Shown: positions 9,007-23,933 of the stretch, one piece after another
Layout of the letters: every line of letters starts with the position of its first letter
How positions within the stretch are numbered: position 1 is the first letter of the stretch
Assembly: GCA_019118365.1 (NCBI GenBank)
Contig: DWZA01000109.1
Coordinates: 54,110 to 118,109 of the forward strand
Length of the DNA: 64,000 nucleotides
Source of the DNA: Candidatus Lachnoclostridium stercoravium
GTDB lineage: Bacteria > Bacillota > Clostridia > Lachnospirales > Lachnospiraceae
Reading direction: 5' to 3'
Program-made: the position numbers and the translations under genes
Notes under the pieces: model-generated
What the model saw: the letters and a program-made list of their open reading frames with translations, nothing else
Told to the model about the DNA's origin: nothing
The model's database searches: none

Positions 9007-9522
9007 TTACTTTCCAAGAAGTCCCCTATATATCTCCAGGCTCTCGTCGTCAAACAATACGAACACGATCTTATCCAGCTTTTCCGGATTTTTCTGCGAA
9101 AATTCCCGCGCCGTCTCCACCGCGATCTCTGCCGCCTGTCTTTTGGGGTATCCATAGATTCCCGTGGAAATTGCAGGAAACGCGATCGAGCGGATCCCGT
9201 TCTGAGCCGCCAGCTCCAGAGAAGTTTCATAGCAGGATCTTAAAAGCTCCGGTTCGTTCTTGTTCCCGCCGTTCCATACCGGCCCTACCGTATGGATCAC
9301 GTACTTGCAGGGAAGCTTATGTCCTCCTGTGATCTTTGCATCCCCTGTTTTACAGCCGTGAAGCTTCATGCACTCCAAAAGCAGGCCTTTCCCTGCCGCC
9401 CGATGGATAGCGCCGTCCACTCCCCCGCCTCCTAACAGAGACGAATTTGCCGCGTTTACGATCGCGTCCACGTCCGTCAGTTTCGTGATGTCCCCTTTGA
9501 TCGCTTCCAATCTAGCCGCCAT
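9007..9522 (-). CDS. Macrodomain protein (MacroD/YmdB type, ADP-ribose deacylase)
   Basis: [50 protein letters not shown]. Confidence 0.95.
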
Positions 9523-9546: not shown

Positions 9547-10573
9547 TCAGCGCCCTGCAGCTTTTCCGGCTGCCGATTCCCTGAATAACGCCAATATCTG
9601 ATCTACAAAAATATTTCTTATTTCCTGATTAGGAATAACCAGCCGAAAACGGTTTCCATCCGGTTCTCCCCGCCAGGTCAGGTATCCCGTCATAAAAAGC
9701 GCGCTCCAGATATTGTCAGCCGAAGTATATAATTCTGGATACGTCAGTTCCTGCCGGATCTCTTTTTCCACCGTTTCCCCATCGATCAGCCGTTCCATTT
9801 CTATCTTTGCAGCCGCCTTATGGTTTCCCATATCCTTTACAAAATGCCTTACCACATCATTTCCGCTGGTATTGATCCAATAGTTCTGAGGCGGAAGCTT
9901 TGCATTGTTCCGATGTTTTCCGCAATAGCAGCTAACATCCCACGGGCAGTAAATCTCTGTATTTCCAAATCGATAGCCGTCATACCATTCTTTCACGCTT
10001 TCGTAATTATCTCCCAGCCCATAGTAATCCAGCATCGCCCGCACTTCCTCATCCGAAAACCCAAAGTACTCGTCAAAATCCACATCTGTAACAGAAAAAA
10101 CATTAAAATTATTCAACCCTGTAAAAATGCTCTCCTTTGCCACCCGCAGGCAGCCTGTAAGCACGGCAAAATATAAATTTTCGTTGGTTTTCAAAGCCGT
10201 TCCGAACAGGCTGCGGATCAGGCGGATCATCGGTTCATAATAGCCCCGTTCATTGGCCTTTGCCAGCGGAACATCGTATTCGTCGATCAAAAGAATCGTT
10301 TTTTTTCCATAATGCCGTTTTAATAATTCTGTCATCTCCCGGAGGCTGTAATATAATGTTCCGTCATCCATATCAGGCTTCAGGAGCGCTGCAAACAGGT
10401 CTTTATCAGTTTGGGATAGCTTTGGGCTGTCCAAAAGGAACTGCAGGATTCACCAGCCCCCAATTTCCCAACAGTTCTCTGATCAGCCCGGTTTTATCTA
10501 CATAGTAAAATCCGTCCCTGCGGATCTGTTCAAAATTTTCGATCCCGATCGGGAGCTTTCTGTCTGTCTCCAT
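9547..10573 (-). pseudogene. AAA-ATPase-like / PD-(D/E)XK nuclease family gene remnant
   Basis: N-terminus METDRKLPIGIENFEQIRRDGFYYVDKTGLI (10573-10406) shifts frame before Walker A. The second frame has LIDEYDVP, LTGCLRVAKESIFTGLNN, WYDGYRFG, PQNYWINTSGN and stops before any nuclease domain. Confidence 0.88.
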
Positions 10574-10667
10574 GACCTGATTCCCTCCTCCCAGATACTT
10601 CCTACTGCTATTATTCTAACATTGATCCAGTCCGCAGACAAGGTTATCCTTCCTCCCCTGCAAAGAC

Positions 10668-10707
10668 AAAAAAATATACGGCTGGCAAGCAAGAGCTCAT
10701 CAGCCGT
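10668..10707 (-). terminator. Intrinsic terminator of the 11-gene operon
   Basis: ACGGCTG / CAGCCGT stem, with a T tract on the minus strand. Confidence 0.6.
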
Positions 10708-10772
10708 TTGTTAGAGGAATCAGCTACAAAATGTTAAAAATCCAGTATTTCCAGGGCGCATCCTAAAGCGCT

Positions 10773-11522
10773 TTACCTTCCCGCTGCCCAGGACAGAAGA
10801 TTCTTCCACAGCCTGCGGTTGCATTCTGACTTGCAGAATTCTTCCGGCATCCAATGGGGTGCGCAGTCGCTGGCCCAGGCGAAGGTTTTTCCTTTTCCAT
10901 AATATCCGATCGTAAGGATCGGGTCCCCTTCATAAGACACCAGCACCTGGCCGCTTTCTTTTGCCTTCAGCCGGTTATATCCCAAAAGAGGGTTCCATGT
11001 TTCGTCCAGCCCTTCCAGGATCGGATGGGAAGCCGGATCGATATGGATCACCGCGCCGTAAGGACGCTCCACCCGGTCGTCCCCTGCTTCCATGGTCACC
11101 GGAAGGATCTCTTCGACCTTTGTGCCGCCCCATCTTCCTTTTCCTTCGATCCCCATAAACGTCATGTAGCCGCCGATCATACCGAAAGCGCCGCCTTCTT
11201 CTACATACTCTTTTATCACTTCCATCAGATCCGGCGTCGTTTTGCTGCTGAAAAATGTGTCCGGATGGAGATAAAATGTATTGGAGCCTACGTCGCTGAT
11301 CAGGACTGCATCGTACTGCGCCAGTTTTTCTTTTGTATCCGGGAACTCGTAGGGAACCATGTGGGCGGGGATATGGGTGATCTCCGCAAAATCTTTCATA
11401 TAGTCCCTGACGCGGCCGATCTCTGTCTCATATCCGCCTACTGTAAACTGATCCACACCCTTTGTCTCTGTTTTTGTAAAAAACCAGGATTCCCCTGCAA
11501 ATAATACCTTGATCTTTTCCAT
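10773..11522 (-). CDS. Glutamine amidotransferase-like (GATase1-like, DUF1355/STM3548 type) protein
   Basis: KVLFAGESW, LISDVGSNTFYLHP, MIGGYMTF (no catalytic Cys), WASDCAPHW. Confidence 0.8.
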   Translation of the reverse strand: MEKIKVLFAGESWFFTKTETKGVDQFTVGGYETEIGRVRDYMKDFAEITHIPAHMVPYEFPDTKEKLAQYDAVLISDVGSNTFYLHPDTFFSSKTTPDLMEVIKEYVEEGGAFGMIGGYMTFMGIEGKGRWGGTKVEEILPVTMEAGDDRVERPYGAVIHIDPASHPILEGLDETWNPLLGYNRLKAKESGQVLVSYEGDPILTIGYYGKGKTFAWASDCAPHWMPEEFCKSECNRRLWKNLLSWAAGR

Positions 11523-11543
11523 ATCTTCTCCTTTTTCTAAGAC

Positions 11544-12653
11544 TCATCGTTTCTTTTCCGCTATTTTCAGGCCTTCCAGCAAAAGCATGACCGTCCTTAC
11601 CATTACTTTCATATTTTCCAGCTTATCCAGGCTGTAGACGTCTTTCGGAGAATGAAGGATCCCCTGATCGTTGAAGGTCAGCATGCAGGACGGGATACCT
11701 TTTGCGTAGTAAGCTTCCTGATCGCTTCCAGGAGGAGGCGGACAGAGGAAAATCGTCTCAAACTCATCTTTTTTCCCTTTCAGGATCTCCCCGATCCTTC
11801 TTTCAAAAGATTCCGGGCCGCTCCATACTTCCATGACTTTTTCGCGCCCTACTCCGTCAATGCATAAGTTCATGGAAACCGTATCTTTACTTTCCTTTTC
11901 CGCCCGATTTCTGGCTCCCGCCAGGTCAAACTCTTCCCCGTCTGTCAGCAGCAGTTCAATAGGAGCATTCAGTTGATAATCTTTCTTCAGACGGCGTCCG
12001 ATCTCCAGCACTACCGCAGCGCCTGCCGCATTGTCGTACGCCCCAGGGGTATTATAAACCGTATCATAATGGCCGCAGATCACTATCTTTTTCCCATTGC
12101 GGACACCCTCCAAACTGCCGACGACGTTCCGGCACTTTCCCGGCTGCCGCCTTGTCTTTGCCCAGCCTGCGACCTTTGCTTTTCTTTCTGCTGCATTTCG
12201 GATCCGTTCCCCTTCTTCCAGTCCCACAAGGTAGTGGGGCAGGTCGCCGCCGGTAAAAAGCATCTGGGGGATGGCTTCTCCATTTCCCCTGACAGTTACA
12301 TAAGCCGCTGTCTTTCCTTCCCTGTCAGTTACGCCGTACCGATCCCAGGAATACATATTCCAGAGCCTATTCTTTCCCAGCCATTCCAGGGTTCCTTCAA
12401 ATCCAGCCGAGGCGCCGCTGTCTAAAAAGAGACAGGACTTTAACCCTTCCGCTCCCTCTACTGACAGCTGCCAGCCGTCCTGCTCCCAGACTTCCACATC
12501 ATAGCTTTCGGTAAATGCCCTGAACGTGATCTTTGCCATCTCTGCTTCCAGAAAACGGCTGCACGCTTTAGCAGCGTCCGATCCCATCATCCTGGGGCCA
12601 AAGCCTACGATGTGCTTCCAGTTTTCATGCATTTGCATAAATTCCTGATCCAT
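11544..12653 (-). CDS. M28 family metallopeptidase
   Basis: GHYDTV, PGAYDNAAG, DGEE, SDQ, LHSPKD zinc-ligand motifs. Confidence 0.85.
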   Translation of the reverse strand: MDQEFMQMHENWKHIVGFGPRMMGSDAAKACSRFLEAEMAKITFRAFTESYDVEVWEQDGWQLSVEGAEGLKSCLFLDSGASAGFEGTLEWLGKNRLWNMYSWDRYGVTDREGKTAAYVTVRGNGEAIPQMLFTGGDLPHYLVGLEEGERIRNAAERKAKVAGWAKTRRQPGKCRNVVGSLEGVRNGKKIVICGHYDTVYNTPGAYDNAAGAAVVLEIGRRLKKDYQLNAPIELLLTDGEEFDLAGARNRAEKESKDTVSMNLCIDGVGREKVMEVWSGPESFERRIGEILKGKKDEFETIFLCPPPPGSDQEAYYAKGIPSCMLTFNDQGILHSPKDVYSLDKLENMKVMVRTVMLLLEGLKIAEKKR

Positions 12654-12670
12654 TTTTCCAGCTCCTTATC

Positions 12671-14119
12671 TTATTGATCCTCCTGAAACGGATAAAGCGT
12701 CCACGGCAGTTTCGTATAAATTTCACTTTTATCTTCCAGTTTCATAAAGGTATAACCAGGCGTCAGCGCCAATATCGCCTGCCGGCCCAGCTTTACAATA
12801 TCCGGGAAGTGATATGCCTGTTTGATAATGATGATATCGTACTCTGAAGGATCGAAATTCCCTGCTTTGCACTGATCCATATCTGTAAACGAATCCGGTA
12901 CGTCTGTGATCGTAATATCCACAGCCCCGCAGGAAACCGTAACCATGTTGGCGATCGGCTTCATATTTCCTCTCATTGGAAGATACATTAAGGTCCTTCC
13001 TTTTGATTTCAGAGTTCCCTTTATGCGTACTGGCTGAGAATAAGCGTCTACCCCAGTTCCAAGCATGCAGTCGATCTCATCTCCTTCTTTATGCTCCATC
13101 AGCTTTCGGCAGGCTTCTCTGTCATAGATCGTTGATACCAACACCTTTTTACCGCCAAAATCCTTTTCCAGGCAGAGTTTCAGCATAACGGTATTCATGC
13201 CCGTGGCTCCCCCGGTGGTATTGTCTCCGGAATCAGAGATAACGACTGGTCTTTTATCACTTTGTACAGCCATTTCCAGCGCAATCTCTGGTTCCACCAG
13301 CGCGCCCTCAAAGTGGAACTGTTCTCTTCTGTCATATACGTAGTGAGCCATCTTCTTCGCCTCTTCCATGGCGTATGGATAATATTCCATACTGCTGGGA
13401 ACGATCACCGCGCAGGGATATGTATTCTCTGTATTTGCAGAATGCATGGAGATAAAGAAACTTGCAGTTTCTATCTTTTCCGATCTCTCCAGCTCTTTAC
13501 ACCTGGCGATCACTGTTTTTAACGGCTCGTCTCTCGTCAGCGCCGAATCTCCGCACATCAACATAGGCAGTCTGACAAAAGCCGGTTTTACCCTGCGGCC
13601 TTTTTTTATCAGATCGATCAGCGCTTCCGCAGCAGCCCGGTACGTATCCTGCTGGTCTTCATGAGGCGCAGTATGATAGGCTCGCAGAACGTCTGCATAT
13701 TCCGTCAGATCCGGAGAAATATTTCCATGGGGATCCATTGCCACGGCAATGGGGATCTGATCGCCGATAACTTTTCTTATCTTACGCAGCATAAAAAGTT
13801 CCCCGCTTCCGATATTTTCCACATAAGCCGCTCCGTGGAGCTGAAGCCATATCCCGTCCAGGGAACCGGCATTTTTTATATCTTCCACGATCCTCTCTGT
13901 AAAGTAACGGAACGCACCTTCTTCGATAACGCCGTATGACATCCACCCGGTATAGGACGAAGCGACGATCTCGACCCCTTCTTTTTCAAAAGCTTTCACG
14001 GCCCCTGGAAAATATTCCAGCATTTCCTCTTTTTCCGCTGTTACAAAATCCTCTTTTTTTGTAAGCACTGGATTAAACGTATTGGATTCATGATAAAATC
14101 CTGCCATTAAAATACGCAT
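12671..14119 (-). CDS. M81 family (MlrC-like) metallopeptidase
   Basis: MRILMAGFYHESNTF, LHGA, DPHGN, PHED, DSGDNTTGG; start reassigned to ATG 14119. Confidence 0.88.
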   Translation of the reverse strand: MRILMAGFYHESNTFNPVLTKKEDFVTAEKEEMLEYFPGAVKAFEKEGVEIVASSYTGWMSYGVIEEGAFRYFTERIVEDIKNAGSLDGIWLQLHGAAYVENIGSGELFMLRKIRKVIGDQIPIAVAMDPHGNISPDLTEYADVLRAYHTAPHEDQQDTYRAAAEALIDLIKKGRRVKPAFVRLPMLMCGDSALTRDEPLKTVIARCKELERSEKIETASFFISMHSANTENTYPCAVIVPSSMEYYPYAMEEAKKMAHYVYDRREQFHFEGALVEPEIALEMAVQSDKRPVVISDSGDNTTGGATGMNTVMLKLCLEKDFGGKKVLVSTIYDREACRKLMEHKEGDEIDCMLGTGVDAYSQPVRIKGTLKSKGRTLMYLPMRGNMKPIANMVTVSCGAVDITITDVPDSFTDMDQCKAGNFDPSEYDIIIIKQAYHFPDIVKLGRQAILALTPGYTFMKLEDKSEIYTKLPWTLYPFQEDQ

Positions 14120-15294
14120 TTTTGTTCTCCTTCCTTTCTGGCGGTCAAACATTTTATTAAAAGCAGCGTATTCAGGATACCCATACCTGCCAATGCCGCT
14201 GCAAATGGAAAGCGATCTCCGTTCTGTGAAAGAATGCGCCGCAGTATATCGATCACAAACGGAGAGGAAAATGATCCCAGGCTTAAAAGCGCCTGCGTTA
14301 CAGCCAGACTGAGTTTTGTCGACTCCGGCGTGCTGGCCTTGCTCGTATGGTAATATCCATAAGGCATGATCAGAGCGTTTCCCACTCCCAAAAACGCCAG
14401 AGCCACATAGATCATCCAGGGCTGGTCCGCGATGATCAGCATTGCAAAGGATACAGCCACCGCCATTCCGCTGGCAAAGCCGACCCATTCTCCGATCACG
14501 CTGTAAAGCTTTCCAAACCAGACCCCGGATAAAGCGCTGATCAGGGTCATAAGAGCCATAGACAAACTGACGGTCATCGCTGTTCCGATATGTTCCGCCT
14601 TCATCACCAGCGATACATTCGAATACATAACAAGATAGATCATATTGTAAAACGCCATTATGACTCCAACGCCAAAGGCTTTTTTGCTGATCCGGACCTT
14701 CTTTTTTTCTTCCTTTTGCTTTTTCGGCTTGTCTGGAAGGAAAAAAAGGATCAAAAGAAAGACCGCGCCTCCCAGGGCATACACCAGAAATCCATATCTC
14801 CAGCTGATAGAAGACAGCAGTCCTGTCGCTAAGAGGGCGCTCATCTGCCCGAAATTGCCTACGGCAAACTGTTGTCCCATAGCGGCCGCCCGTTCTTCTC
14901 CTTCATAAAAGTCTGTGATCAGCCCCAATGCCAACGGGAAAAATATCCCCGTTCCCATCCCCATTACAAACCGCGCTGCGAGTATCTTCTGAAAATCATC
15001 AAGAAATATGGGAAGCACTCCTGCAGCAGTAAATAGAAACACCCCCGTAAGAAGGATGAGCTTATTTCCAAAATATGAAACGCAGACTCCGCTTATCAAC
15101 ACAAAAATGGTCATCGACAATGTAGGATAGGCCAGCAGGCTCTGCAGTTCTACCGTAGAAGCCTCTGGGAATGCTTCCTGGATGCTTCCCAATTCCACAG
15201 ATATTGTATTGTTGACCATTGTTACAAGAGACACGGAAAGGATTACAAATTTCAAAAACTGACCGTTTACTTCTCTTCTTTTCGCATTTTCCAT
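14107..15294 (-). CDS. MFS transporter
   Basis: About 12 hydrophobic segments; ARFVMGMGTG and ITDFYEGEERA motifs. Confidence 0.88.
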   Translation of the reverse strand: MENAKRREVNGQFLKFVILSVSLVTMVNNTISVELGSIQEAFPEASTVELQSLLAYPTLSMTIFVLISGVCVSYFGNKLILLTGVFLFTAAGVLPIFLDDFQKILAARFVMGMGTGIFFPLALGLITDFYEGEERAAAMGQQFAVGNFGQMSALLATGLLSSISWRYGFLVYALGGAVFLLILFFLPDKPKKQKEEKKKVRISKKAFGVGVIMAFYNMIYLVMYSNVSLVMKAEHIGTAMTVSLSMALMTLISALSGVWFGKLYSVIGEWVGFASGMAVAVSFAMLIIADQPWMIYVALAFLGVGNALIMPYGYYHTSKASTPESTKLSLAVTQALLSLGSFSSPFVIDILRRILSQNGDRFPFAAALAGMGILNTLLLIKCLTARKEGEQKCVF

Positions 15295-15417
15295 ATCATG
15301 TCCACTGTCCCTTTCGGCTAGTCTTCTTTTTCCATGGCCATAGCCCATGCAGGATCCAAAAGATAGGGCCTCAAATATCCTGTCGTATCGGACATAGGAA
15401 ACGCTTCATCTTTCAGG

Positions 15418-16650
15418 CTATTTTTCCTCTGCCAGCTGATACAGAGAATCATAAAGCACCTTTACTCCTGCTTCGCAGTCTTCTGGAGACGAATACTCGT
15501 TTCCATTATGGCTTAATCCGTCTTTAGAGCGGATAAAGATCATTCCGGATGGGCAGAACGGTATCAATGCGCCGGAGTCATGTCCTGCTCCGCTCGGCAT
15601 CTTATATACAGGATATCCTTCTTTCATGCACGCTTCTTCGATCACCTTCTGGATACGCGGATCGCATGGTTTTTCTGTGGTTTCCCTCGACAATACGTTT
15701 AATTCCCATGTTACTTTTCTGCGGCTGCAGATCTCTTCTACTCTTTCATTGATCCTTTTTAACAGCTGATCTCTCACCTCAGGGATCTGGTGGCGGATAT
15801 CTATGCTGAATTTCGCAGTTCCCGGAACTACGTTGACCCCGCCTGGCTCTGCTACGATCCTTCCTACCGTCGCTACGCAGCCTTCGCTTTTCTTTGTTTC
15901 ATCTTCGATCGCCAGGATCACCTCAGAAGCTGCGCACAGCGCATCCTTACGGAGCGGCAGCGGCGTAGTCCCTGCGTGAGCCGATTGTCCTTTGATAACA
16001 TACTCGCCGCGGATCTGAGCGCAGATCCCTGTTACGATCCCTACAGAAAGCCCTTTGCTTTCCAATACCGCTCCCTGTTCAATATGGAGCTCCAGATGAG
16101 CTTTTGCATATCCCTCCGGCAGCGCCGCATCTGTCACATGATCCGGATCGATCCCGCATTCTCTCAACGCTTCTGTAACAGAGATCCCGTCTTTATCCAC
16201 ATGTTCCATGATCCCTTCCGGAGGCTTTCCCACCATATGGGCGGCTCCGGAATAAGAACCGACAAATCTGGTCCCCTCTTCGTCTCTGTAAGCGATCACT
16301 TCGATCGGATGGAGCGTCTCGATACCTTCTTCGTTCATAGCCTGAAGCGCTTCGATCCCTCCGATCACGCCCAGGCGTCCGTCAAAAATCCCTCCGCCGT
16401 AAACCGTATCGATATGAGAACCTGTCATTACAACAGAAGACTGTGGATCCTTTCCCTCTTTTCTTCCGATCAGATTTCCAGCTGCGTCTACACGCACTTT
16501 TAATCCCGCTTCTTCCATGTATTTTCTGACCAGGGCATGAGCCTCGTTTTCTTCTTTTGACAGCGCGAGACAATAGATCCCGTCTTCTTTCTTTCCGATC
16601 TTTCCAAGCTCCGTTAAACGGTTAAAAATCCGCTCCTTATTGACTGCCAT
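15418..16650 (-). CDS. M20 family Zn amidohydrolase (allantoate amidohydrolase / N-carbamoyl-amino acid hydrolase type)
   Basis: GSHIDTV, FDGRLGV, DEEG, ELHIEQG, SGAGHDS, SHN..EY. Confidence 0.9.
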   Translation of the reverse strand: MAVNKERIFNRLTELGKIGKKEDGIYCLALSKEENEAHALVRKYMEEAGLKVRVDAAGNLIGRKEGKDPQSSVVMTGSHIDTVYGGGIFDGRLGVIGGIEALQAMNEEGIETLHPIEVIAYRDEEGTRFVGSYSGAAHMVGKPPEGIMEHVDKDGISVTEALRECGIDPDHVTDAALPEGYAKAHLELHIEQGAVLESKGLSVGIVTGICAQIRGEYVIKGQSAHAGTTPLPLRKDALCAASEVILAIEDETKKSEGCVATVGRIVAEPGGVNVVPGTAKFSIDIRHQIPEVRDQLLKRINERVEEICSRRKVTWELNVLSRETTEKPCDPRIQKVIEEACMKEGYPVYKMPSGAGHDSGALIPFCPSGMIFIRSKDGLSHNGNEYSSPEDCEAGVKVLYDSLYQLAEEK

Positions 16651-16666
16651 AATGATACCTCCCCTT

Positions 16667-17920
16667 TTATGCTGCATAATCGACAGTTTTCTTTCCGTTG
16701 TATACGTCTCTGTCCAGTTCGCCCTCTACATTGGCTACCAGCATAGCTACGATCACGTCCGCATCTACATTTAAAAGCGTGCGGAACATTCCGGAAAACC
16801 AGTCGATCCCCAGAAGCAGCGCGATCGCATCCACCGGCAGGCCAAGGCTTGTTGCAAGGAATGTCATACTCACTACTGCGCCTCCCGGCACGGTGATCGT
16901 TCCCATACACAGCATACAGGACAGTACGATTCCCATTACGATCTGAGACATAGTCAGCTCTACGTTGCATGACTGACTCATAAACATGATATACGCCACA
17001 TTGCACAGCGCCGCTCCGTTACTGTTCATGGACATTGCCAAAGGTCCTACAAAGTCAGATACTCTCCGGCTTACTCCAAATTTTGTTACGCTGTCTTCCA
17101 TCTTCGTTGGCAAAGTGATAGCTGAGGACGTTGTTGTCAGGGCGATCATGGACATCTTCATAAATTTTTTCGGCATCATAAGCGGATTCACGCCGCAGCG
17201 AATCCCTGCAAATGGAATATATACTACCAGCATGATCAGATCGCCGATGGCCAGTACTGCAAGGAACTTTAACATCGGCAATACAACTGCAAATCCGATC
17301 GCGCCGGATACGTTTGCCAGCAGGCAGAACACGCCGATCGGCGCCAGCTTCATAACTGTCTGGATAATGTTCAGGACAACGCTGTTGACTCCTTTTAACA
17401 TCCGGATGACGATATCATCTCCAGTAGCCGCTGTATACGTACTGCACGCCGCTCCAAAGAACAGTGCAAAGACAATACACGGGATCATGCTGCCTGCCGC
17501 CATGGACTCAATAATATTCGTTGGGATAAATCCCAAAAGGGTATCCTGGATACTGCCGGCTTCCGCCACTGTCCCGGCTTCTGTAGGCTCGCTGATCACG
17601 ATCCCAAGGCCCGGCTGGATGATCACACAGAGGAAATACCCCAGCACTGCCGCAAAAACAGTAAAGAGGATAAACCATTTAAAGGTATTAAATCCCATTC
17701 TTCCCAGTCCTTTTCCCTGCTGGTTCCCTACAGATCCCGCTACCGCCGTCATGACCAGGACTACTACCGACATCTGGATCAGCCGGATGAACATATCTCC
17801 GATAAATTTCAGGTTTCCTGCCCATGGGCCTACGATCCCGCCAAATACTACGCCTCCGATCGTCGCGATCAGGATCTGCGTCGTCATGGATATCTTTTTC
17901 TTTTCTGTCTTTCCTGCCAT
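16667..17920 (-). CDS. Dicarboxylate/amino acid:cation symporter (DAACS)
   Basis: TTSSAITLP, SMNSNG, DWFSGMFRTLLNV. Confidence 0.92.
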   Translation of the reverse strand: MAGKTEKKKISMTTQILIATIGGVVFGGIVGPWAGNLKFIGDMFIRLIQMSVVVLVMTAVAGSVGNQQGKGLGRMGFNTFKWFILFTVFAAVLGYFLCVIIQPGLGIVISEPTEAGTVAEAGSIQDTLLGFIPTNIIESMAAGSMIPCIVFALFFGAACSTYTAATGDDIVIRMLKGVNSVVLNIIQTVMKLAPIGVFCLLANVSGAIGFAVVLPMLKFLAVLAIGDLIMLVVYIPFAGIRCGVNPLMMPKKFMKMSMIALTTTSSAITLPTKMEDSVTKFGVSRRVSDFVGPLAMSMNSNGAALCNVAYIMFMSQSCNVELTMSQIVMGIVLSCMLCMGTITVPGGAVVSMTFLATSLGLPVDAIALLLGIDWFSGMFRTLLNVDADVIVAMLVANVEGELDRDVYNGKKTVDYAA

Positions 17921-17971
17921 AATGTTATCTCCCTTCTCCGTTCAATATTCCCCAGGTTTTTTCGTTATTTT

Positions 17972-18403
17972 TTACTCTTCCATCAGTTCAATATGCAGCG
18001 TCTGTTCCCCTTTGCGCTGTACGATGGTGCTGAATTCTTCCAGGTCTTCCAAACCTTCCGTGATCGTAAGCACCAGATTTCCATAAAGATGGCCCATCTG
18101 GGTAGCGATGCTGCACGGACCGCAGGACATGAAGAATTCCCCGTCCCACTGAAGGTGCGGCACGTTGCCCGGATATACGATGATCTCTCCCTTTGACGGG
18201 ATCCTGGTCATATATTCGTCCGGAAGGCCGTGGGCCCAGTCTTCCAGAGGCATAAAGCAGGCTTTTCCGCTCCAGATCACCTGGATCATCTTCGCGTCCC
18301 AGGGGAGCCGGTCTAACAGCCATTTACAAGTAACCGGGCTCTTCTCCTCCTCCAGTCTTGCGATAAACGTAAATTTTCCCGACGTCATCTTCACCTTTTT
18401 CAT
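17972..18403 (-). CDS. DUF3830 family protein
   Basis: ARLEEEKSPVTC...LP...IWSGKAC...PSKGEIIVYPG...GN pattern. Confidence 0.75.
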   Translation of the reverse strand: MKKVKMTSGKFTFIARLEEEKSPVTCKWLLDRLPWDAKMIQVIWSGKACFMPLEDWAHGLPDEYMTRIPSKGEIIVYPGNVPHLQWDGEFFMSCGPCSIATQMGHLYGNLVLTITEGLEDLEEFSTIVQRKGEQTLHIELMEE

Positions 18404-19218
18404 GTTTCACTTTCTCCTTTCTTTCTTTTCTCTGCGCCTTTTCGGGCGTTTTCTATAAAAATCCTGGCCTTTTCGGGGTTCACAGGATTTTTCATATCCC
18501 CGTCCTTGATCCACGTGGCCACGCTGACCCCGTCGAAATATGTAAGAAGTTCTTCAATGTTGTCTCCTGTGGAGCCGCCTCCTAAAAATATAGGCGCGTC
18601 CCCAACACGTTTTCTTGCCCGTTTCACCATCTGGATACTTTCCTCCGGAGTTTTTCCGGCTATAAAAAGGCCGTCGGCAAAGGCCTCGTGGATGCTTTCC
18701 CAGGCCGCGTCTTCGATGGGCTTTGCTCCCAGCGGCACGCCGTGGACTTCATAGACGTCCGCGTAGACCGGGATCTTTGTCTTTATCCGTTTCCGCAAAG
18801 CCGCGATCTCACAGCACTGCGCCTGCAAAAGGCCTGCGCTGGTCACTTCCGCCCCGGTAAACAGATGCTCTACCCGGACGAAATCCGCCCCGATCGCGTC
18901 GGCTACCGCCAGCGCCGCCACGCCGTCCCAGTTGACCAGAACTCCCATAACTGCCTTTGGAAAATGGTTTCTTATCCTTTCGCCGATCACCGTCATATAT
19001 GCGATAGCCTCCGGAGACGAGATCTGCCTGATGGGCATATCGTTCATGTTCTGGATGATAAAACCGTCAAAGCCGTTTTCCATGATCATCTCCGCCTCTT
19101 TTAGCGCCTGGTCCGAGATCTGACCGATACTCATGTTTTCGTGGCGGTAGCTTCCCGGAAGCGGTTCCGGCTGGATCATGGAAAGGATCAGAGGGAACTT
19201 CTTTCTGTCGATCATCAT
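18400..19218 (-). CDS. BtpA/SgcQ family TIM-barrel protein
   Basis: PLPGS, IIQNMND, GVLVNWD, ADFVRV, YADVYEVHG, ADGLFIAG, FLGGG; start at 19218 (ATGA overlap). Confidence 0.85.
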   Translation of the reverse strand: MMIDRKKFPLILSMIQPEPLPGSYRHENMSIGQISDQALKEAEMIMENGFDGFIIQNMNDMPIRQISSPEAIAYMTVIGERIRNHFPKAVMGVLVNWDGVAALAVADAIGADFVRVEHLFTGAEVTSAGLLQAQCCEIAALRKRIKTKIPVYADVYEVHGVPLGAKPIEDAAWESIHEAFADGLFIAGKTPEESIQMVKRARKRVGDAPIFLGGGSTGDNIEELLTYFDGVSVATWIKDGDMKNPVNPEKARIFIENARKGAEKRKKGESET

Positions 19219-20192
19219 TCTTTTCCTCCTTCCAGCTGTTTCAGATATCCCGCTGCGGCTGCGTAAAATCCTGCTGCAGGGATGATGCCCAGTTCTGTGA
19301 TAAATCCCGTGATATACTCCGCCGGTATGGGAAGAAGTTCCGGGCAGCTGAAATCGATCTTTTCCATTTCCTCCTCCGTCAGTCCCACAGAAGCAAATCT
19401 GCTTTTCAGATCGTTTACCACTGCTTCCCGATGATACCCATACAGGCCCCTGCCGTCGATCTTCATCATCGGCGTCAGCACGTAAAATGGCACTCCAAGC
19501 GTTTTGCATACAAGCGCCGCCATCTCTGATCCTGTCGTATTATATGCCGTTCCATCCGGCAGCGCGGTTTCCGCGCCGCAGAACGCTCCGTCGCACTGAC
19601 GCAGATAGTACATCATCGCCGCGTCAGGAATAAAATGGGTCCGGATCCCTTTCGCGGCCGTCGTCCTGGCAAAAGCCGCACCTCCGTTTATGCTCCGGCT
19701 CTCTGGAATAAAAACTTCGATATCCGCGCCTTCTTTCGCTTCCAGAAAAGCATTGACTGTGCTGGAATAGTCGAAGACCAGGATCTTTTTCATGTTCTTT
19801 GAAAACCTCGCAGCGTATTCTACGATCTTTTCCAGATTTTCTCTTGTCTTTTCTCTGTAAGCAGAAACAGCATTATTAATTGCTTTTTCCGCCTGATCCA
19901 TTTCCATCGTTTCCAGGCCGGACATTCCAGCCAGCATCTCGTGGATACCATTTGTTACAGCGCAGCTGGCTTTTCCTCTTGTTTCAATAAAAAATGCCGC
20001 CAGCGCTCCGATCTCTTCCTTCAGCGTTTTAACGTCTGCGCTCCTTTTCTTCCCTTCCTCCGCCAGATCCAGGAACATATCTCCGATCATACGGATATGT
20101 GTGGAAGCTCCTAAAACCCTCTGGCTTACAATATCGTCAAACATCTTTTTTCCATTTTCTGATAATGATCCTCTGATTTTTTCCATACGCAC
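19215..20192 (-). CDS. eIF-2B alpha/beta/delta (IF-2B) family protein, sugar-phosphate isomerase-like
   Basis: FDYSSTV, PESRS, FIPDAAM, GAE, NTTGS, IPAEYITGFITELG. Confidence 0.82.
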   Translation of the reverse strand: MRMEKIRGSLSENGKKMFDDIVSQRVLGASTHIRMIGDMFLDLAEEGKKRSADVKTLKEEIGALAAFFIETRGKASCAVTNGIHEMLAGMSGLETMEMDQAEKAINNAVSAYREKTRENLEKIVEYAARFSKNMKKILVFDYSSTVNAFLEAKEGADIEVFIPESRSINGGAAFARTTAAKGIRTHFIPDAAMMYYLRQCDGAFCGAETALPDGTAYNTTGSEMAALVCKTLGVPFYVLTPMMKIDGRGLYGYHREAVVNDLKSRFASVGLTEEEMEKIDFSCPELLPIPAEYITGFITELGIIPAAGFYAAAAGYLKQLEGGKE

Positions 20193-21185
20193 TTACCCTT
20201 GCTCCTGAAACTTTCCCTTAAGGAAAGCCTCTATTTCTTTAATATCTGTCTGTCCCGTTCTCGCTCCTTCCTTCTGGATCACAAAAGAGGCCGCCGCCGC
20301 TCCGTATTCCGCCGCCCATCTTGCGGTCATCCCCTTTGCCATACATGCCAGAAATGTTCCATTAAAACTGTCGCCCGCCCCTGTGGTATCCCGGATCTCA
20401 TCCGGATGGAACGCCTCGTAATGAAAAGAATCTCCTCTTTGATACACACAGCCGCCTTTCTGCGCGCATGTGACTACGACCGTCTCTATCCCCAGACTCA
20501 GGAGATACCTGGCTGCTGTTTCCATGTTTTCTGTGGGAAACAGGCTGTAAATGCCTTCTTCATTTGTAAAAAGGACGGATACGCGGCTGAAGATATGCTC
20601 CCAGTTATCGATCCCCGGCTTTTCTGCATGGACCTCATAATCCAGGGAAAGTTTTGTACCGCTTCCCGCCAGTTCCTGCGCCGTACGTTCTGCCAAGGCG
20701 TGATCCATAGAACAGATGTGGACATACTCCGCCTGCCTGACGTAATCGTAATCGATCCGCCGGATATCCGGACTAGTAAGGGGAGAAACCACCGCGCTTA
20801 AGTATTTTTCTCCGCTTCCGTCAAGAAAAACAACGCAGTAAAATGTGTTCTCTTTCTCGTCTTCGTAAAGTCCTGTGATATCTATCCCTCTGTTTTTATA
20901 GTCTTCCTTCAGGAACCTGCCGTAATCGTCCTTTCCCACAGCGGTCACGATCCCGCAGGATACTCCCATCTTAACTGCCTGGGAACAGAAATTCCCGATA
21001 ATGCCTCCCGGCAGCTTTCCGATCTCCTTTGCCCGTACCTTTTCTCCCCGTCCAGGCATCCGGTCTACCTTTAAGAACAGGTCCATATCGGATTCTCCGA
21101 TCCCGATAATGCTGATCCTTTTGTTCGATTTATCTGTCAACAACGATCTCTTCCTCTCCTTCAAAAGGGATCCATGGATTTTCAT
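20193..21185 (-). CDS. PfkB family carbohydrate kinase (probable TTG start at 21140)
   Basis: PGGIIGN, VGKDDYG, DTTGAGDSFNG anion hole. Confidence 0.9.
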   Translation of the reverse strand: MKIHGSLLKERKRSLLTDKSNKRISIIGIGESDMDLFLKVDRMPGRGEKVRAKEIGKLPGGIIGNFCSQAVKMGVSCGIVTAVGKDDYGRFLKEDYKNRGIDITGLYEDEKENTFYCVVFLDGSGEKYLSAVVSPLTSPDIRRIDYDYVRQAEYVHICSMDHALAERTAQELAGSGTKLSLDYEVHAEKPGIDNWEHIFSRVSVLFTNEEGIYSLFPTENMETAARYLLSLGIETVVVTCAQKGGCVYQRGDSFHYEAFHPDEIRDTTGAGDSFNGTFLACMAKGMTARWAAEYGAAAASFVIQKEGARTGQTDIKEIEAFLKGKFQEQG

Positions 21186-21636
21186 CCTGGTCGATAAAGT
21201 CTTTTTTCTGCTCTACCATAAAATAATAGGTAGCGGTGCCTTTTACCGCAAAAGCTGGAGAATGCCAGGCGCCTCTTCCAATGATGATCACGGTCCCTGC
21301 CGGGATCCGGAAAGCTTTTACTGTCTCCGGATTTGGTTTAGCTGTAAAGGAACCGAGAAACGCCGGGATGTCCGCCAGCATGATCAGGTCTTCCTTGGCC
21401 GCCCACAGTACTTCTTCCCTGCTCACGTGGCGCTCCATGGCCGTTATCTTCTCCGGCAGTTCTTCCGAATATACGACGCCTATGCCCATGGGCGCGTCCG
21501 GGAGGACGAAATCCATAGGAGAACAGCATTTCCATCCTTCTCCTGCTTTTGTGATCGTATTTCTGTAAGGGAAAACGACCCTTCCATAAGGAGCAAAACT
21601 TTCTTTGGTAAGCTCTGTTACCGGAATATGTTTCAT
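21130..21636 (-). CDS. Ureidoglycolate lyase (AllA)-like cupin
   Basis: ELTKESFAPYG, MERH, GAWH. Confidence 0.72.
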   Translation of the reverse strand: MKHIPVTELTKESFAPYGRVVFPYRNTITKAGEGWKCCSPMDFVLPDAPMGIGVVYSEELPEKITAMERHVSREEVLWAAKEDLIMLADIPAFLGSFTAKPNPETVKAFRIPAGTVIIIGRGAWHSPAFAVKGTATYYFMVEQKKDFIDQDENPWIPFEGEEEIVVDR

Positions 21637-21835
21637 AAATATCTCCTTTCTTTTATTATCGTTTATGTTTGTTTATTCAATCATTATATGTTTATATTAA
21701 TCATTTACATCCCAATTGTCAAGGAGATATTTGTGTAATTTTTATATTTTTAAACGTTTTTTCACAATTTTTATGTTATATATTTTTTTATGTCTTTACA
21801 TTCGCTTTGCAGTTTGGTATTATAATGTCAATCAA

Positions 21836-21854
21836 AATGTTCGTTTTAAACAAT
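21836..21854. promoter_or_regulatory. Candidate DeoR/GlpR-type operator
   Basis: AATGTTCGTTTTAAACAAT is a near-palindrome resembling the GlpR half-site ATGTTCG. Further TATGTT half-sites lie in the same divergent intergenic region. Confidence 0.35.
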
Positions 21855-21868
21855 AAGGGGAGAGAATT

Positions 21869-22645
21869 ATGTTAAAAAGTGAAAGGCTTGCACAGATACA
21901 GAGCATGCTGAACCGATATGGAAAAGTAGAAGTGAATAATTTATGCCGTATGTTTCATGTTACGGAGATGACGATACGAAGGGACTTAAATGAACTTGAG
22001 CAGCAGAATCTGGCCATCCGTTCCCACGGCGGCGCCATTGCGCCGCCGGAAACCGTGATCACAGAACGGCCGTATCAGACAAGGATCACGTCACACCTGA
22101 AAGAAAAAGAGGCGATCGCCCGCCTGGCCCTGCCTCTGATCCCCTCCGGCGCCAAAGTCTTCTTTGATTCCAGCACCACGGTCTACTGCCTGGCCCGGCT
22201 TCTTTCCAATGAGCAGAATCTTCTTGTGGTCACAGACACCCTGACTACCGCCCTGGAGCTAAACACCAGGACCAGCATAAGCGTCATGTGCCTGGGAGGC
22301 GAGCTGCGGAAAAATTCCAATTCCTGCACAGGAATGTTCGCGGAAAACATGCTCCACACCATGTATTTTGACTGTTCCTTCCTGGGCGTTTACGGCCTCA
22401 CAGAAGACGGCTATCTGTCCACCCCCAGCACGGTGGAATATTCCCTGAAGCGGCTGATCATCGAACGTTCCAAAAAGGTGGTGCTCATGGCAGACAGCAG
22501 CAAGATCGGAACCCCCAGTTTTCTTCAGCTGGGCCATATTTCCGAGATTAGCACCATGATCACAGATTCCGGGATCCCCCGGTCTTTTATTGAGTGCTGC
22601 CAGAAAAATAATACGGAAATACTGATCGCAGATATACCGCGATAA
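21869..22645 (+). CDS. DeoR/GlpR family transcriptional regulator
   Basis: VTEMTIRRDLNELE, RSHGGA, FFDSSTT, ADSSKIG. Confidence 0.95.
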   Translation: MLKSERLAQIQSMLNRYGKVEVNNLCRMFHVTEMTIRRDLNELEQQNLAIRSHGGAIAPPETVITERPYQTRITSHLKEKEAIARLALPLIPSGAKVFFDSSTTVYCLARLLSNEQNLLVVTDTLTTALELNTRTSISVMCLGGELRKNSNSCTGMFAENMLHTMYFDCSFLGVYGLTEDGYLSTPSTVEYSLKRLIIERSKKVVLMADSSKIGTPSFLQLGHISEISTMITDSGIPRSFIECCQKNNTEILIADIPR

Positions 22646-22670: not shown

Positions 22671-23879
22671 ATGAAATACGATTTTACTTCCATCATGAAA
22701 CGTTCCGGCATGGACGCCATTGCCGTAGACTCTCTTGGCAAAACGCCCATGGCGCCCCTGCCGCCCAAAGAGGGCTTTGACGTCATCCCCATGTGGGTGG
22801 CGGATATGAATTTTCCTACTGTACCCACGATCCCGGAAGCCATCATTGCGCGTGCAGCTCACCCGGCTTACGGCTACTTTTCTCCCAGGAAAGAGTATTA
22901 TGATTCTATCATCCAGTGGCAGAAGGACCGCAACGGCGTGATGGATCTTACTCCTGAATGCATTGGCTACGAAAACGGCGTTTTAGGCGGCGTGATCAGC
23001 GCCCTGAACGTTTTCTGTTCCAAAGGGGACAAGGTCCTTCTCCATTCTCCTACTTATATCGGCTTTACCAATACTCTGAACAACAACGGATACCGTATGG
23101 TCCTTTCTCCTCTGGTGCAGGATGAGAATCTGGTGTGGAGAATGGATTTTGACGACATGGAAAAGAAGATCAAAGAAAATAAGATCCATGCGGCGATCTT
23201 CTGTTCTCCCTACAATCCCTGCGGCCGCGTGTGGGAACGCTGGGAGATTGAAAAAGCCATGGAACTTTATAAAAAATATGACGTGATGGTGGTTTCCGAT
23301 GAGATCTGGTCCGATATTATCCTGAACGGCCATAAGCATATCCCTACCCAGAGCGTATCGGAAGATGCAAAGATGCGCACGGTAGCCCTTTACGCCCCTT
23401 CCAAGACCTTCAACCTTGCAGGCCTTGTAGGAAGCTACCACATCATTTACAATTCCTTTATCCGCGACCGGGTGAAGAAGGAATCTTCCCTGTCTCACTA
23501 TAATGATATGAACGTTCTTTCTATGCACGCCCTGATCGGAGCCTACCGGCAGGAAGGGCAGGAATGGGTGGACGAGCTGTGCCAGGTCCTCAGTGAAAAC
23601 GTGGATTACGCCTGCCAGTATATCAAAGATCATTTTGAAGGTGTAGAAGCCGCTCATCCGGAAGGAACCTATATGCTGTTTGCCGACTGCACAAAGTGGT
23701 GCCAGGCCCATGGAAAGACCATCGACGATGTGGAAAAGGCTGCCTGGGATGTGGGCGTCGCCTGCCAGGACGGACGTATGTTCCACGGCCCGTGCCACCT
23801 GCGCATCAACCTTGCCCTGCCTCTTTCCCGCGTCAAAGAGGCCTTTGAGCGCCTGGACAAATATGTATTCAACGCATAA
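22671..23879 (+). CDS. MalY/PatB family PLP-dependent cystathionine beta-lyase
   Basis: PMWVADMNF, CSPYNPCGRVW, SDEIW, SKTFNLAG, LRINLA. Confidence 0.93.
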   Translation: MKYDFTSIMKRSGMDAIAVDSLGKTPMAPLPPKEGFDVIPMWVADMNFPTVPTIPEAIIARAAHPAYGYFSPRKEYYDSIIQWQKDRNGVMDLTPECIGYENGVLGGVISALNVFCSKGDKVLLHSPTYIGFTNTLNNNGYRMVLSPLVQDENLVWRMDFDDMEKKIKENKIHAAIFCSPYNPCGRVWERWEIEKAMELYKKYDVMVVSDEIWSDIILNGHKHIPTQSVSEDAKMRTVALYAPSKTFNLAGLVGSYHIIYNSFIRDRVKKESSLSHYNDMNVLSMHALIGAYRQEGQEWVDELCQVLSENVDYACQYIKDHFEGVEAAHPEGTYMLFADCTKWCQAHGKTIDDVEKAAWDVGVACQDGRMFHGPCHLRINLALPLSRVKEAFERLDKYVFNA

Positions 23880-23933
23880 AAATCGGAGGGTATCCCGGCC
23901 CTGAAACGGCCTGAGGGATACCCTCCGATTTTT
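23878..23933. terminator. Bidirectional intrinsic terminator
   Basis: AAAAATCGGAGGGTATCCC / GGGATACCCTCCGATTTTT 19-bp arms between convergent genes. Confidence 0.9.

Follow-up and report, generated by a model that had tools for sequence, protein, structure and literature searches.

The minus-strand gene run at 10773-21636 of the analysed window, 64,000 nucleotides of Candidatus Lachnoclostridium stercoravium DNA, is, judging from its sequence signals, a genuine bacterial operon in which a putative, uncharacterised sugar-phosphate pathway is combined with amide-cutting enzymes and an acidic-amino-acid-type transporter. We tentatively read it as a DeoR-controlled composite catabolic operon in which independently evolving cassettes were fused, co-ordinating sugar and amide-compound breakdown, a reading that could well be correct. 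With moderate confidence, the sugar would be ribose-like and the amide compound an acidic amino acid bearing an N-carbamoyl or N-acyl group; the two may be imported as one N-linked conjugate.

The ORF listing gave 11 genes in an unbroken run, bounded by a divergent DeoR gene and a single terminator (Table 1). Together with the signal and fold analyses, it confirmed the original observation of one putative operon with this layout, and profile searches of the predicted ORFs against Pfam and NCBIfam reproduced all 11 family calls. The genes are closely packed. The PfkB and IF-2B-like genes abut (0 nt), and overlaps join cupin and PfkB (at most 56 nt, measured from the first ATG), IF-2B-like and BtpA (4 nt), BtpA and DUF3830 (4 nt, start over stop codon), DAACS and M20 (11 nt) and MFS and M81 (16 nt), while gaps separate DUF3830 and DAACS (51 nt), M20 and MFS (69 nt), M81 and M28 (17 nt) and M28 and GATase1_like (21 nt). 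A strong promoter-like sequence, TTGACA-17-TAATAT, precedes the cupin gene on the minus strand (21722-21694). Both the MFE (-28.2 kcal/mol) and the centroid fold of positions 10664-10772 contain the terminator hairpin, which is followed by AUAUUUUUUU.

Table 1. Predicted features of the operon and its flanks
Feature	Position	Strand	Basis
Intrinsic terminator	10666..10707 (approx.)	-	12-pair interrupted stem + U-tract, after last gene
GATase1_like protein	10773..11522	-	PF07090, 281 bits
M28-family metallopeptidase	11544..12653	-	PF04389, 87 bits
M81 (MlrC-like) metallopeptidase	12671..14122	-	DUF1485 + MlrC_C
MFS transporter	14107..15348	-	PF07690, MFS_1
M20 amidase, hydantoinase/carbamoylase family	15418..16677	-	TIGR01879, 447 bits (cut-off 204)
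DAACS (SDF) cation symporter	16667..17920	-	PF00375, 327 bits
DUF3830, small cyclophilin-like protein	17972..18403	-	PF12903
BtpA/SgcQ-family TIM barrel	18400..19218	-	TIGR00259, 183 bits (cut-off 153)
IF-2B-fold protein	19215..20192	-	PF01008, 124 bits
PfkB-family sugar kinase	20193..21185	-	PF00294, 153 bits
AllA-like cupin, divergent	21130..21636	-	Ureidogly_lyase PF04115, weak (37 bits, E 3e-9)
Divergent promoter/operator region (predicted)	21637..21868	.	Promoter motifs on both strands + palindrome
DeoR-family regulator	21869..22645	+	HTH_DeoR + DeoRC; divergent from operon
PatB-family C-S lyase	22671..23879	+	TIGR04350, 292 bits (cut-off 340)

The control region also contains a plus-strand promoter-like sequence, TTTACA-17-TATTAT (21795-21823), and a palindrome, TGTTTAAAACGAACA (21838-21852), which occurs once in the window. 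The palindrome, like the AAACAT repeats past the -10, is common to loci L038, L040, L042 and L001. The DeoR protein fell under every NCBIfam equivalog cut-off (GlpR 201/300, AgaR 193/260) and is 70%-78% identical to the DeoR proteins of fused as well as standalone sugar blocks. One predicted promoter and one predicted DeoR-type operator may serve the whole run, the operator recurring in standalone sugar operons.

The 11 genes form a mosaic of four blocks and no single conserved set. The sugar block (DeoR, AllA-like cupin, PfkB, IF-2B-like and BtpA) is usually standalone, and the triad of DUF3830, DAACS and L-carbamoylase-type M20 is mostly so; the third block is the M28 and GATase1-like pair, and the fourth the MFS and M81 insert. 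Among 80 BtpA loci from metagenomes, none carried DUF3830. The Pelethocola genome (G695) contains the sugar block without any DUF3830, and Lachnospiraceae 62-35 carries both blocks unlinked. In most standalone sugar blocks (L040, L043, L046, L060, L067), a CUT2 ABC importer with an RbsB-like, ribose/allose-type binding protein lies between cupin and PfkB. The fused operons, in contrast, have no internal CUT2 importer, and their transporters are DAACS plus, in the window, MFS. A gene for a glucose/maltose-type PTS EIICB stands beside DeoR in L038, and the sugar importer may therefore simply lie outside the operon, a point against the composite reading.

This modularity invites a serious alternative, which we consider possible but somewhat less likely than the composite reading: biochemically independent cassettes, one for the use of a ribose-like sugar (cupin to BtpA) and one for the salvage of N-carbamoyl or N-acyl acidic amino acids (DUF3830-DAACS-M20, M81, M28 and GATase1-like), came under one promoter when an accessory region was rearranged, and have no substrate in common. 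The modules lie apart in most genomes, where both halves are self-sufficient, which also counts against the composite reading. Triads without sugar genes adjoin PucR regulators, and the source genome holds a second, paralogous triad of this kind elsewhere, in a non-sugar context. In Clostridium sp. AM58-1XD (L001), the closest named relative, the cupin is frameshifted and PfkB internally deleted, whereas the amide genes are intact; this decay of sugar genes likewise weighs against the composite reading. The region left of BacA has no synteny to a same-genus genome, and the uneven per-gene identity to L038 (58%-94%) suggests a mosaic history. The MFS and M81 pair, which lies inside a fused operon only here and was not found in any other fused copy (L038 has no MFS between M20 and M28), appears to be a lineage-specific insert. 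In L034, a 62%-identical M81 adjoins a DUF3830-SDF-M20 triad, with a 35%-identical MFS near it.

Against independence stands the recurrence of the sugar/amide gene fusion. L038 contains DeoR, cupin, PfkB, IF-2B, BtpA, DUF3830, SDF, M20, M28 and GATase1_like in that order, a nine-gene version on a metagenome contig that is missing only MFS and M81; L039 begins identically. Two other genomes hold partial fused versions: L001 (DeoR to IF2B, BtpA, DUF3830, DAACS, M28 and GATase1) and L003 (BtpA, DUF3830, DAACS and M20; 66%-71% identity). The expected co-occurrence of the genes was therefore borne out for the sugar/amidohydrolase linkage (L038/L039, L001, L003) but not for the full 11-gene set. The BtpA-DUF3830 junction is kept in at least four assemblies at identity levels of ca. 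90% and ca. 66%, its start-stop overlap in the window also argues against independence, and a promoter and operator-motif scan of the window detected no internal promoter or operator inside the run. Moreover, the M28 and GATase1_like pair, which recurs in L001, L002, L038 and L132, is separately tied to sugar transport: in Diplocloster modestus (L132), LacI regulators and a CUT2 ABC transporter of sugar type are encoded in the same operon as the orthologous M28 (50% identity) and GATase1_like (66%). GATase1_like also adjoins M20 and/or M28 genes in L131-L133. Other IF2B-type/BtpA cassettes lie beside aglycone-removing enzymes, namely nucleoside phosphorylases (L026), ADP-ribosylglycohydrolase (L045, L126) and Amidohydro_2 (x2, in ca. 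40 loci). The composite reading draws on these independent links of amidases and aglycone removal with sugar systems, and on the recurrence of the fusion across divergence, the tight junctions and the importer pattern. Against it, the sugar genes are no more diverged in fused than in standalone operons, which suggests unchanged chemistry and a free sugar.

Within the sugar block, the cupin accompanies DeoR-PfkB-IF2B-BtpA in every case, and six orthologues share its motifs ERHVSR and WHSPAF without change. The top NCBIfam matches of PfkB were far under cut-off (ribokinase 128/300, tagatose kinase 105/420, ribose-1-P kinases ca. 100). Alignment of the IF-2B-fold protein with R15P isomerase (3a11/3vm6) placed D141 at Cys133 and E208 at Asp202; the Cys/Asp catalytic pair of known isomerases is thus Asp/Glu here. 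Because D141 and E208 are invariant in 121 of 121 homologues, the protein is probably a working enzyme. BtpA adjoins the IF-2B-like gene in all loci whose contig reaches far enough and is 62%-75% identical among A2 loci. Its AF2 model (pLDDT 83.7) matched phosphate-binding barrels best in Foldseek (PcrB, Ru5P 3-epimerase, ThiE and TrpA; TM 0.5-0.6). A literature search found no paper on BtpA/SgcQ function, nor any on that of DUF3830.

Among 1.84 billion proteins, DUF3830 is represented by no more than 345 cluster representatives. The top Foldseek matches of its AF2 model (pLDDT 88) were the Pictet-Spenglerases KslB/McbB (TM 0.76) and 3KOP, and its modelled fold resembles enzymes binding an amino acid and a carbonyl compound. 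The DAACS protein, linked with DUF3830 and M20 in many loci, was under the GltP (172/638) and DctA (167/513) cut-offs; we know of no DAACS carrier that transports glycoconjugates, a point against the composite reading. For M20, the original assignment held as to a carbamoylase type, the nearest structure being N-carbamoyl-L-amino acid hydrolase (3n5f, 1e-122), but not as to AllC (285 bits against 598), and ErtE was also missed (393/520). M20 thus appears closest to L-carbamoylases, which, with the DUF3830 fold and the invariant D141 and E208, favours the composite reading. The M81 ORF extends to 14488, its domain beginning at the 14122 ATG; it matched PDB 3iuu (7e-32), and assignment as a microcystinase was rejected (MlrC model 84/999). 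GATase1_like matched the Salmonella STM1381 structure 3soz (3e-62).

From gene content, order and modularity, the recurrent fusion and the residue substitutions, all directly observed, we infer the following substrates and reactions. DAACS and/or MFS would take up a derivative of an acidic amino acid or ureido acid, to which the ribose-like sugar may be N-linked or with which it may share a source. M20, aided by DUF3830, and then M81, M28 and GATase1-like may remove carbamoyl, acyl or peptidyl groups, amide hydrolysis yielding amino acid, NH3 and CO2. PfkB would phosphorylate the sugar, the Asp/Glu IF-2B-fold enzyme would isomerise it, and BtpA, probably a metal-dependent phosphate-binding barrel, could act as epimerase or lyase to give a central metabolite. 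A sugar phosphate would lift DeoR repression across the full transcript. A conjugate of a sugar with an N-linked acidic amino acid or ureido compound is still compatible with these data; the t6A-like nucleoside, ring-opened nucleoside and Amadori compound originally proposed are guesses.

A specific version of the original proposal is unlikely, namely that the operon takes apart a ribosyl-ureido compound or a nucleoside with a carbamoyl-amino-acid modification (t6A-like, or a dihydropyrimidine nucleoside with its ring opened). In this version the cupin would cleave an N-glycosyl ureide, M20 would hydrolyse the N-carbamoyl amino acid, and the kinase, isomerase and BtpA would consume ribose. AllA, ureidoglycolate lyase, frees the ureido group carried by a carbinolamide carbon, and membership of the cupin in this family fits such a route, as do the L-carbamoylase-like M20, the ribose/allose-like binding protein of standalone cassettes and the phosphorylases and ADP-ribosylglycohydrolases beside related ones. 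However, the similarity of the cupin to AllA is weak (E 0.3 against AllA structures), neither a nucleosidase nor a phosphorylase is encoded in the operon, and the cupin stays with the sugar block even without M20 or DUF3830, so its substrate needs no carbamoylase.

A variant of a characterised pathway is very improbable: AllA-like and AllC-family proteins recall allantoin/ureide degradation, PfkB with an acidic-amino-acid-type carrier recalls Salmonella fra, and PfkB with an e2b2-like protein recalls the R1P kinase/R15P isomerase pair, but the cut-offs for AllC, FrlD (90/247), R15P isomerase (83/314) and R1P kinases (ca. 100/330-500) were missed, the R15P isomerase catalytic residues are replaced, and the window operon lacks allantoinase and other allantoin genes, the SIS deglycase of fructosamine (frl/fra) deglycation and the RuBisCO of the archaeal pentose-bisphosphate route. 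No equivalog-level NCBIfam match was obtained, and the literature and curated models assign no pathway to this gene set, in agreement with the original prediction.

Membership of the PatB-family gene in the system is uncertain. Aminotransferases near other loci are of HisC and AlaAT types and thus unrelated to it. The gene starts 26 nt after DeoR and is followed by a terminator-like site at 23913.

The run of 11 consecutive minus-strand genes in the original prediction was accurate, being reproduced by ORF listing and Pfam/NCBIfam scans of the window, and the divergent DeoR gene and the one terminator that it described were both present at the operon ends. Neighbouring genes overlapped slightly or were separated by at most 69 nt, except for the larger overlap of the cupin and PfkB genes (up to 56 nt, assuming that PfkB starts at the first ATG). 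The 232-bp intergenic region between DeoR and the cupin contained the top promoter-like site of the scan (TTGACA-17-TAATAT), and a stem-loop with a U-tract was found 3′ of the last gene, GATase1_like. The spacing, the one promoter-like site and the one terminator support a predicted single transcription unit of 11 genes. Synteny with a same-genus genome (G083:C15) started at BacA/UDG, from window position 23938 rightwards, and was absent to the left; thus, the operon is accessory, with the DeoR/operon side lying in a variable region.

Genes of the operon and its divergent regulator (window coordinates)
Feature	Position	Strand	Basis
AllA-like cupin	21130-21636	minus	PF04115 at 37 bits
PfkB kinase	20193-21185	minus	Pfam/NCBIfam
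IF-2B-fold protein	19215-20192	minus	Pfam/NCBIfam
BtpA	18400-19218	minus	Pfam/NCBIfam
DUF3830	17972-18403	minus	Pfam/NCBIfam
DAACS/SDF symporter	16667-17920	minus	Pfam/NCBIfam
M20 amidase	15418-16677	minus	Pfam/NCBIfam
MFS	14107-15348	minus	Pfam/NCBIfam
M81/MlrC-like	12671-14122	minus	Pfam/NCBIfam
M28	11544-12653	minus	Pfam/NCBIfam
GATase1_like	10773-11522	minus	Pfam/NCBIfam
DeoR	21869-22645	divergent from operon	

Five of the 11 products belong to families without an assigned biochemical function (GATase1_like PF07090, BtpA/SgcQ, DUF3830, the Asp/Glu IF-2B subfamily and non-MlrC M81). The IF-2B-like protein has an IF-2B fold (PF01008, 124 bits vs. a cut-off of 22) and aligned over its full length to the Thermococcus ribose-1,5-bisphosphate isomerase (3a11/3vm6; 3a11 E 7e-14). 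However, the catalytic Cys (Tk Cys133) is replaced by D141 in a DYSST motif and the catalytic Asp (Asp202) by E208 in a GAET motif, and its scores fell below the ribose-1,5-bisphosphate isomerase/MtnA equivalog cut-offs (TIGR00511: 83/314 bits; TIGR00512: 40/279). A canonical R15P or MTR-1-P isomerase was rejected because of this replacement of Cys/Asp by Asp/Glu, yet D141 and E208 were invariant in 121 of 121 homologues (38%–98% identity), which suggests that the protein is very probably still an enzyme.

The BtpA protein was assigned to the BtpA/SgcQ family (TIGR00259: 183 bits vs. a cut-off of 153; PF03437: 175 bits), with a score below the cut-off of the photosystem I BtpA equivalog (137/400), and was unusually constrained (62%–75% identity over the aligned loci). 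Since a PDB sequence search gave no match, its fold was searched instead. The model (pLDDT 83.7) predicted a (beta/alpha)8 barrel whose phosphate-binding end carries GGG / S-x-A-T, and Foldseek matched it to generic phosphate-binding barrels only (TM 0.5–0.6; PcrB, ribulose-5-P 3-epimerase, ThiE, TrpA/TrpF and KDPGal aldolase). Asp, Glu, His and Asn residues are invariant at its strand ends and may point to a metal-assisted reaction of a phosphosugar; a class I aldolase was judged unlikely, as no barrel strand carries an invariant Lys.

On the amide side, the DUF3830 protein likewise gave no match in a PDB sequence search. Its model (pLDDT 88) predicted a cyclophilin-like fold, and the top matches in the fold search were the orphan structure 3KOP and the bacterial Pictet-Spenglerases KslB and McbB, enzymes that bind an amino acid and a carbonyl compound. 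The M20 protein passed the hydantoinase/carbamoylase model (TIGR01879, 447/204) and was closest to 3n5f (1e-122), the Geobacillus L-carbamoylase AmaB (N-carbamoyl-L-amino acid hydrolase), and remained below the equivalog cut-offs for AllC (TIGR03176, 285/598) and the N-carbamyl-L-glutamate amidohydrolase ErtE (NF058540, 393/520). The M81 protein showed family-level M81 domains only and scored 84/999 with the microcystinase MlrC model (NF041767), while GATase1_like resembled the Salmonella orphan structures STM1381 and STM3548. The cupin exceeded the PF04115 cut-off of 23 bits (E 3e-9), and its orthologues keep ERH and WHSPAF motifs; its similarity to the AllA structures 1xsq/1yqc was not significant (E 0.3), and NCBIfam gave no match. 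Its context was always DeoR-PfkB-IF2B-BtpA and never allantoin genes.

The neighbourhoods of DUF3830, IF-2B-like, BtpA and GATase1_like, used as probes in species genomes, metagenome contigs and a protein collection, revealed that the gene set is a mosaic of four blocks: a sugar block (DeoR, cupin, PfkB, IF-2B-like, BtpA), a triad (DUF3830, DAACS, M20), a pair (M28, GATase1_like) and an insert (MFS, M81). The IF-2B-like and BtpA genes adjoined in every locus of sufficient length (80 metagenomic BtpA loci and three other family genomes) and occurred in three forms. The first (ca. 40 loci) has a mannose-type PTS upstream, with an Amidohydro_2 gene on either side, and a GntR regulator, and the second (ca. 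25 loci) has an ABC importer and PfkB upstream with a GntR regulator. The third (DeoR, (DUF6616), cupin, CUT2 ABC, PfkB, IF-2B, BtpA) was found in Anaerotruncus colihominis, Ca. Pelethocola and metagenomes, and its ABC binding protein is ribose/allose-like; the sugar block of the window corresponds to this form without the ABC genes. Both marker families are rare: with the genome of the window counted, the IF-2B-like protein was found in 4 of 301 family genomes and 2 of 399 class genomes, and DUF3830 in 2 of 301 family genomes, with just 345 cluster representatives in 1.84 billion proteins.

The triad, with its L-carbamoylase-type M20, also recurred without sugar genes and was often duplicated around a PucR regulator. 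A second copy lies on the same contig ca. 47 kb upstream of the window start (C70:6691-9620; order DAACS-M20-DUF3830), and its products were 73% (M20), 69% (DAACS) and 57% (DUF3830) identical to those of the operon. Its neighbourhood (aldose epimerase / NfnAB-like / MatE / GGGtGRT) was syntenic with three other loci (L012, L017 and L027); the NfnAB-like pair beside sister triads was considered as a clue to dihydropyrimidine dehydrogenase and rejected, its domain make-up being read as housekeeping NfnAB-type. The M28 and GATase1_like pair recurred in four loci, namely Clostridium sp. AM58-1XD (L001), L002, the metagenome contig L038 and Diplocloster modestus (L132). In a further locus (L131:5631-16018), a 72% identical GATase1_like orthologue lies between an Opp-type peptide ABC system with M20 and AllF/AllG/AllH-like genes, in a ureide/oxamate-type context that also includes a carbamate kinase. 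A contig carrying an M81 protein 62% identical to that of the window, adjoining a triad, was also found (L034).

The expectation that the neighbourhood is conserved held for the fusion of sugar block, triad and pair, which recurred in whole or in part in four loci (L038, L039, L001 and L003), and failed for MFS and M81, whose position between M20 and M28 was restricted to the window among the loci surveyed. L038 matches the window operon minus these two genes, with identities of 78% (DeoR), 67% (cupin), 66% (PfkB), 58% (IF-2B), 76% (BtpA), 94% (DUF3830), 91% (SDF), 81% (M20), 62% (M28) and 76% (GATase1_like), and the start of this arrangement was repeated in the metagenome contig L039. The AM58-1XD locus comprises DeoR to IF-2B, BtpA, DUF3830, DAACS, M28 and GATase1; here the cupin orthologue is spread over three reading frames by two frameshifts (L001:7300-8190) and the PfkB orthologue has an internal deletion of ca. 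190 residues (about 61–247 missing), beside intact IF-2B-like, BtpA and amide genes. An Oscillospiraceae MAG (L003) carries BtpA, DUF3830, DAACS and M20 at 66%–71% identity. The fusion was found in none of the 80 metagenomic BtpA loci, the Pelethocola genome has the sugar block and no DUF3830, and in Lachnospiraceae 62-35 the sugar block and triad are on different scaffolds.

The fused loci (window, L038 and L001) and two standalone sugar-block loci (L040 and L042) share the TTGACA promoter followed by AAACAT repeats after the −10 element, and the intergenic regions of all five contain a palindrome, TGTTT(A/G)AAA(C/A)GAACA, beside the DeoR start. The window version, TGTTTAAAACGAACA (21838-21852), is a candidate DeoR operator and occurs once in the 64-kb window; an internal operator was rejected, as the window has no second match. 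These shared features and the single occurrence place the amide genes under the sugar-cassette regulator/operator.

Two readings fit these data: coupled substrate handling, or independent cassettes that became joined. We tentatively prefer the former, in which the operon would handle both a ribose-like sugar and an acidic amino acid with an N-carbamoyl or N-acyl group, the two perhaps being imported as one N-linked conjugate or derived from one source. This is consistent with the recurrence and tight junctions of the fusion, the single sugar-type control region and the absence of an in-operon sugar importer exactly where DAACS is present. In addition, M28/GATase1_like in Diplocloster is independently associated with a LacI-controlled sugar-type ABC system, and elsewhere IF2B(Asp/Glu)/BtpA genes are accompanied by aglycone-removing enzymes (nucleoside phosphorylases, ADP-ribosylglycohydrolase and Amidohydro_2). 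It is quite possible, however, that two cassettes were merely brought together by rearrangement. Each is self-sufficient elsewhere, divergence of the sugar genes is no greater in fused operons than in standalone ones, the AM58-1XD cupin and PfkB have decayed beside intact amide genes, DeoR in L038 adjoins a PTS gene, and DAACS carriers are not known to transport glycoconjugates.

A more specific version of coupled handling, which is unlikely, assigns a step to several products. The Asp/Glu IF-2B protein and BtpA would form an unrecognised route in which N-glycosyl or ribose-like sugars with a terminal phosphate first undergo an Amadori-type isomerisation and are then cleaved or epimerised, and the fused operon would couple this route to the release and destruction of an aglycone that contains nitrogen. 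An N-carbamoyl acidic amino acid would be set free by the AllA-like cupin and converted by the L-carbamoylase M20 to the amino acid, NH3 and CO2, with DUF3830 assisting as a new small-molecule enzyme or chaperone. If true, this would provide the first functions for BtpA/SgcQ, DUF3830, GATase1-like PF07090 and non-microcystin M81. The nucleoside-ureide operon originally suggested, a sub-case of coupled handling, is improbable: it is weakened because the cupin remains part of the sugar block where a genome encodes neither DUF3830 nor a carbamoylase.

Among the closest known systems, Salmonella fra (fructose-asparagine/aspartate utilisation) and E. coli frlABCDR (fructoselysine) have a similar operon logic, in which an N-linked sugar-amino acid conjugate is processed by a dicarboxylate/amino-acid-type carrier, a kinase of the PfkB family and an amidase step, with a repressor. 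However, the SIS-type deglycase of fra/frl is not among the 11 window products, the window kinase is below the FrlD fructosamine kinase cut-off (90/247), its regulator is DeoR rather than GntR, and IF-2B-like, BtpA, cupin and DUF3830 have no counterpart in either system. The archaeal pentose-bisphosphate pathway (ribose-1-phosphate kinase, ribose-1,5-bisphosphate isomerase and RuBisCO), which we compared along with the aldose-1-phosphate isomerases MtnA/DrdI, also places PfkB beside an IF-2B-fold protein that the window protein matches in fold and length, though not in its catalytic Cys/Asp; the window operon lacks RuBisCO, and the obligatory IF-2B-like partner is instead the BtpA barrel. E. 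coli sgc (DeoR regulator SgcR, BtpA-family SgcQ, M42 peptidase-like SgcX, PTS components and SgcE epimerase), a cluster itself uncharacterised to our knowledge, similarly combines a DeoR regulator, a BtpA/SgcQ barrel and a binuclear-metallopeptidase-like protein in one sugar-type cluster, but has a PTS and an RPE-like epimerase and lacks IF-2B-like, cupin, DUF3830, DAACS and M20.

The M20 family assignment and its match to 3n5f recall L-carbamoylase/hydantoin amidases, and the PucR regulators adjoining sister triads recall PucR-controlled ureide catabolism. Unlike in such systems, hydantoinase, racemase and allantoin genes are all missing from the window operon, and the constant partners of its M20 type are DUF3830 and a DAACS carrier, a combination not found in the literature search. 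The uncharacterised GntR cassettes (man-PTS/Amidohydro_2 or ABC/PfkB) share the two adjoining core genes and, before them, a step of terminal phosphorylation (PfkB or mannose-type PTS), whereas the window type alone is DeoR-controlled and cupin-bearing, has no sugar importer within the operon and is fused to DUF3830/DAACS/M20 and peptidase genes. Literature searches on DUF3830, SgcQ, BtpA family/PF03437, ureidosuccinase and eIF2B-like+BtpA+PfkB returned nothing relevant, and no curated model or paper was found that assigns the set or its core families, in agreement with the claim that no described pathway has this gene set. A variant of a characterised pathway (allantoin, frl/fra or pentose bisphosphate) is very improbable, as every equivalog and catalytic-residue test failed. 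We would classify the locus as a catabolic operon under repressor control whose substrate may be a sugar conjugate.

The comparative map splits a vague cluster into testable units, namely a widespread phosphosugar cassette (the Asp/Glu IF-2B–BtpA pair, fed by a PfkB kinase or mannose-type PTS) and a rare ureido/acyl-amino-acid module (the DUF3830-DAACS-M20 triad). Gut metagenomes commonly contain, via Anaerotruncus colihominis, the standalone cassette's ribose-type binding protein, through which the sugar ligand could be approached directly; solving this ligand would also account for the orphan SgcQ of E. coli, while the fused operon hints at which nitrogen compound goes with that sugar in the gut. 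The value of the locus thus lies in its handles on five orphan families, in a system that is real, recurrent and directly testable.

Several neighbouring genes were also observed. The gene after DeoR encodes a PatB/MalY-family C-S lyase in the window (22671-23879) and a MalX-like glucose/maltose PTS EIICB in L038 (L038:615-2219), together recalling the malX-malY pair of E. coli. The idea that an aminotransferase is a conserved member of the pathway was rejected, since the one after DeoR is this PatB-type lyase and those near other loci are of HisC and AlaAT types. Just downstream of the operon terminator, an AAA-ATPase_like gene (PF09820, 9547-10620) is seemingly split: ORF 9547-10434 covers profile positions 120–201 only, and another start, followed by a typical N-terminus, is present at ca. 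10573, so the gene is probably a frameshifted pseudogene. A macro-domain protein (ADP-ribose-binding type) is encoded ca. 1.2 kb downstream of the operon (9007-9522), and a 43% identical protein near the L012 sister triad; its presence near both loci is probably a coincidence.
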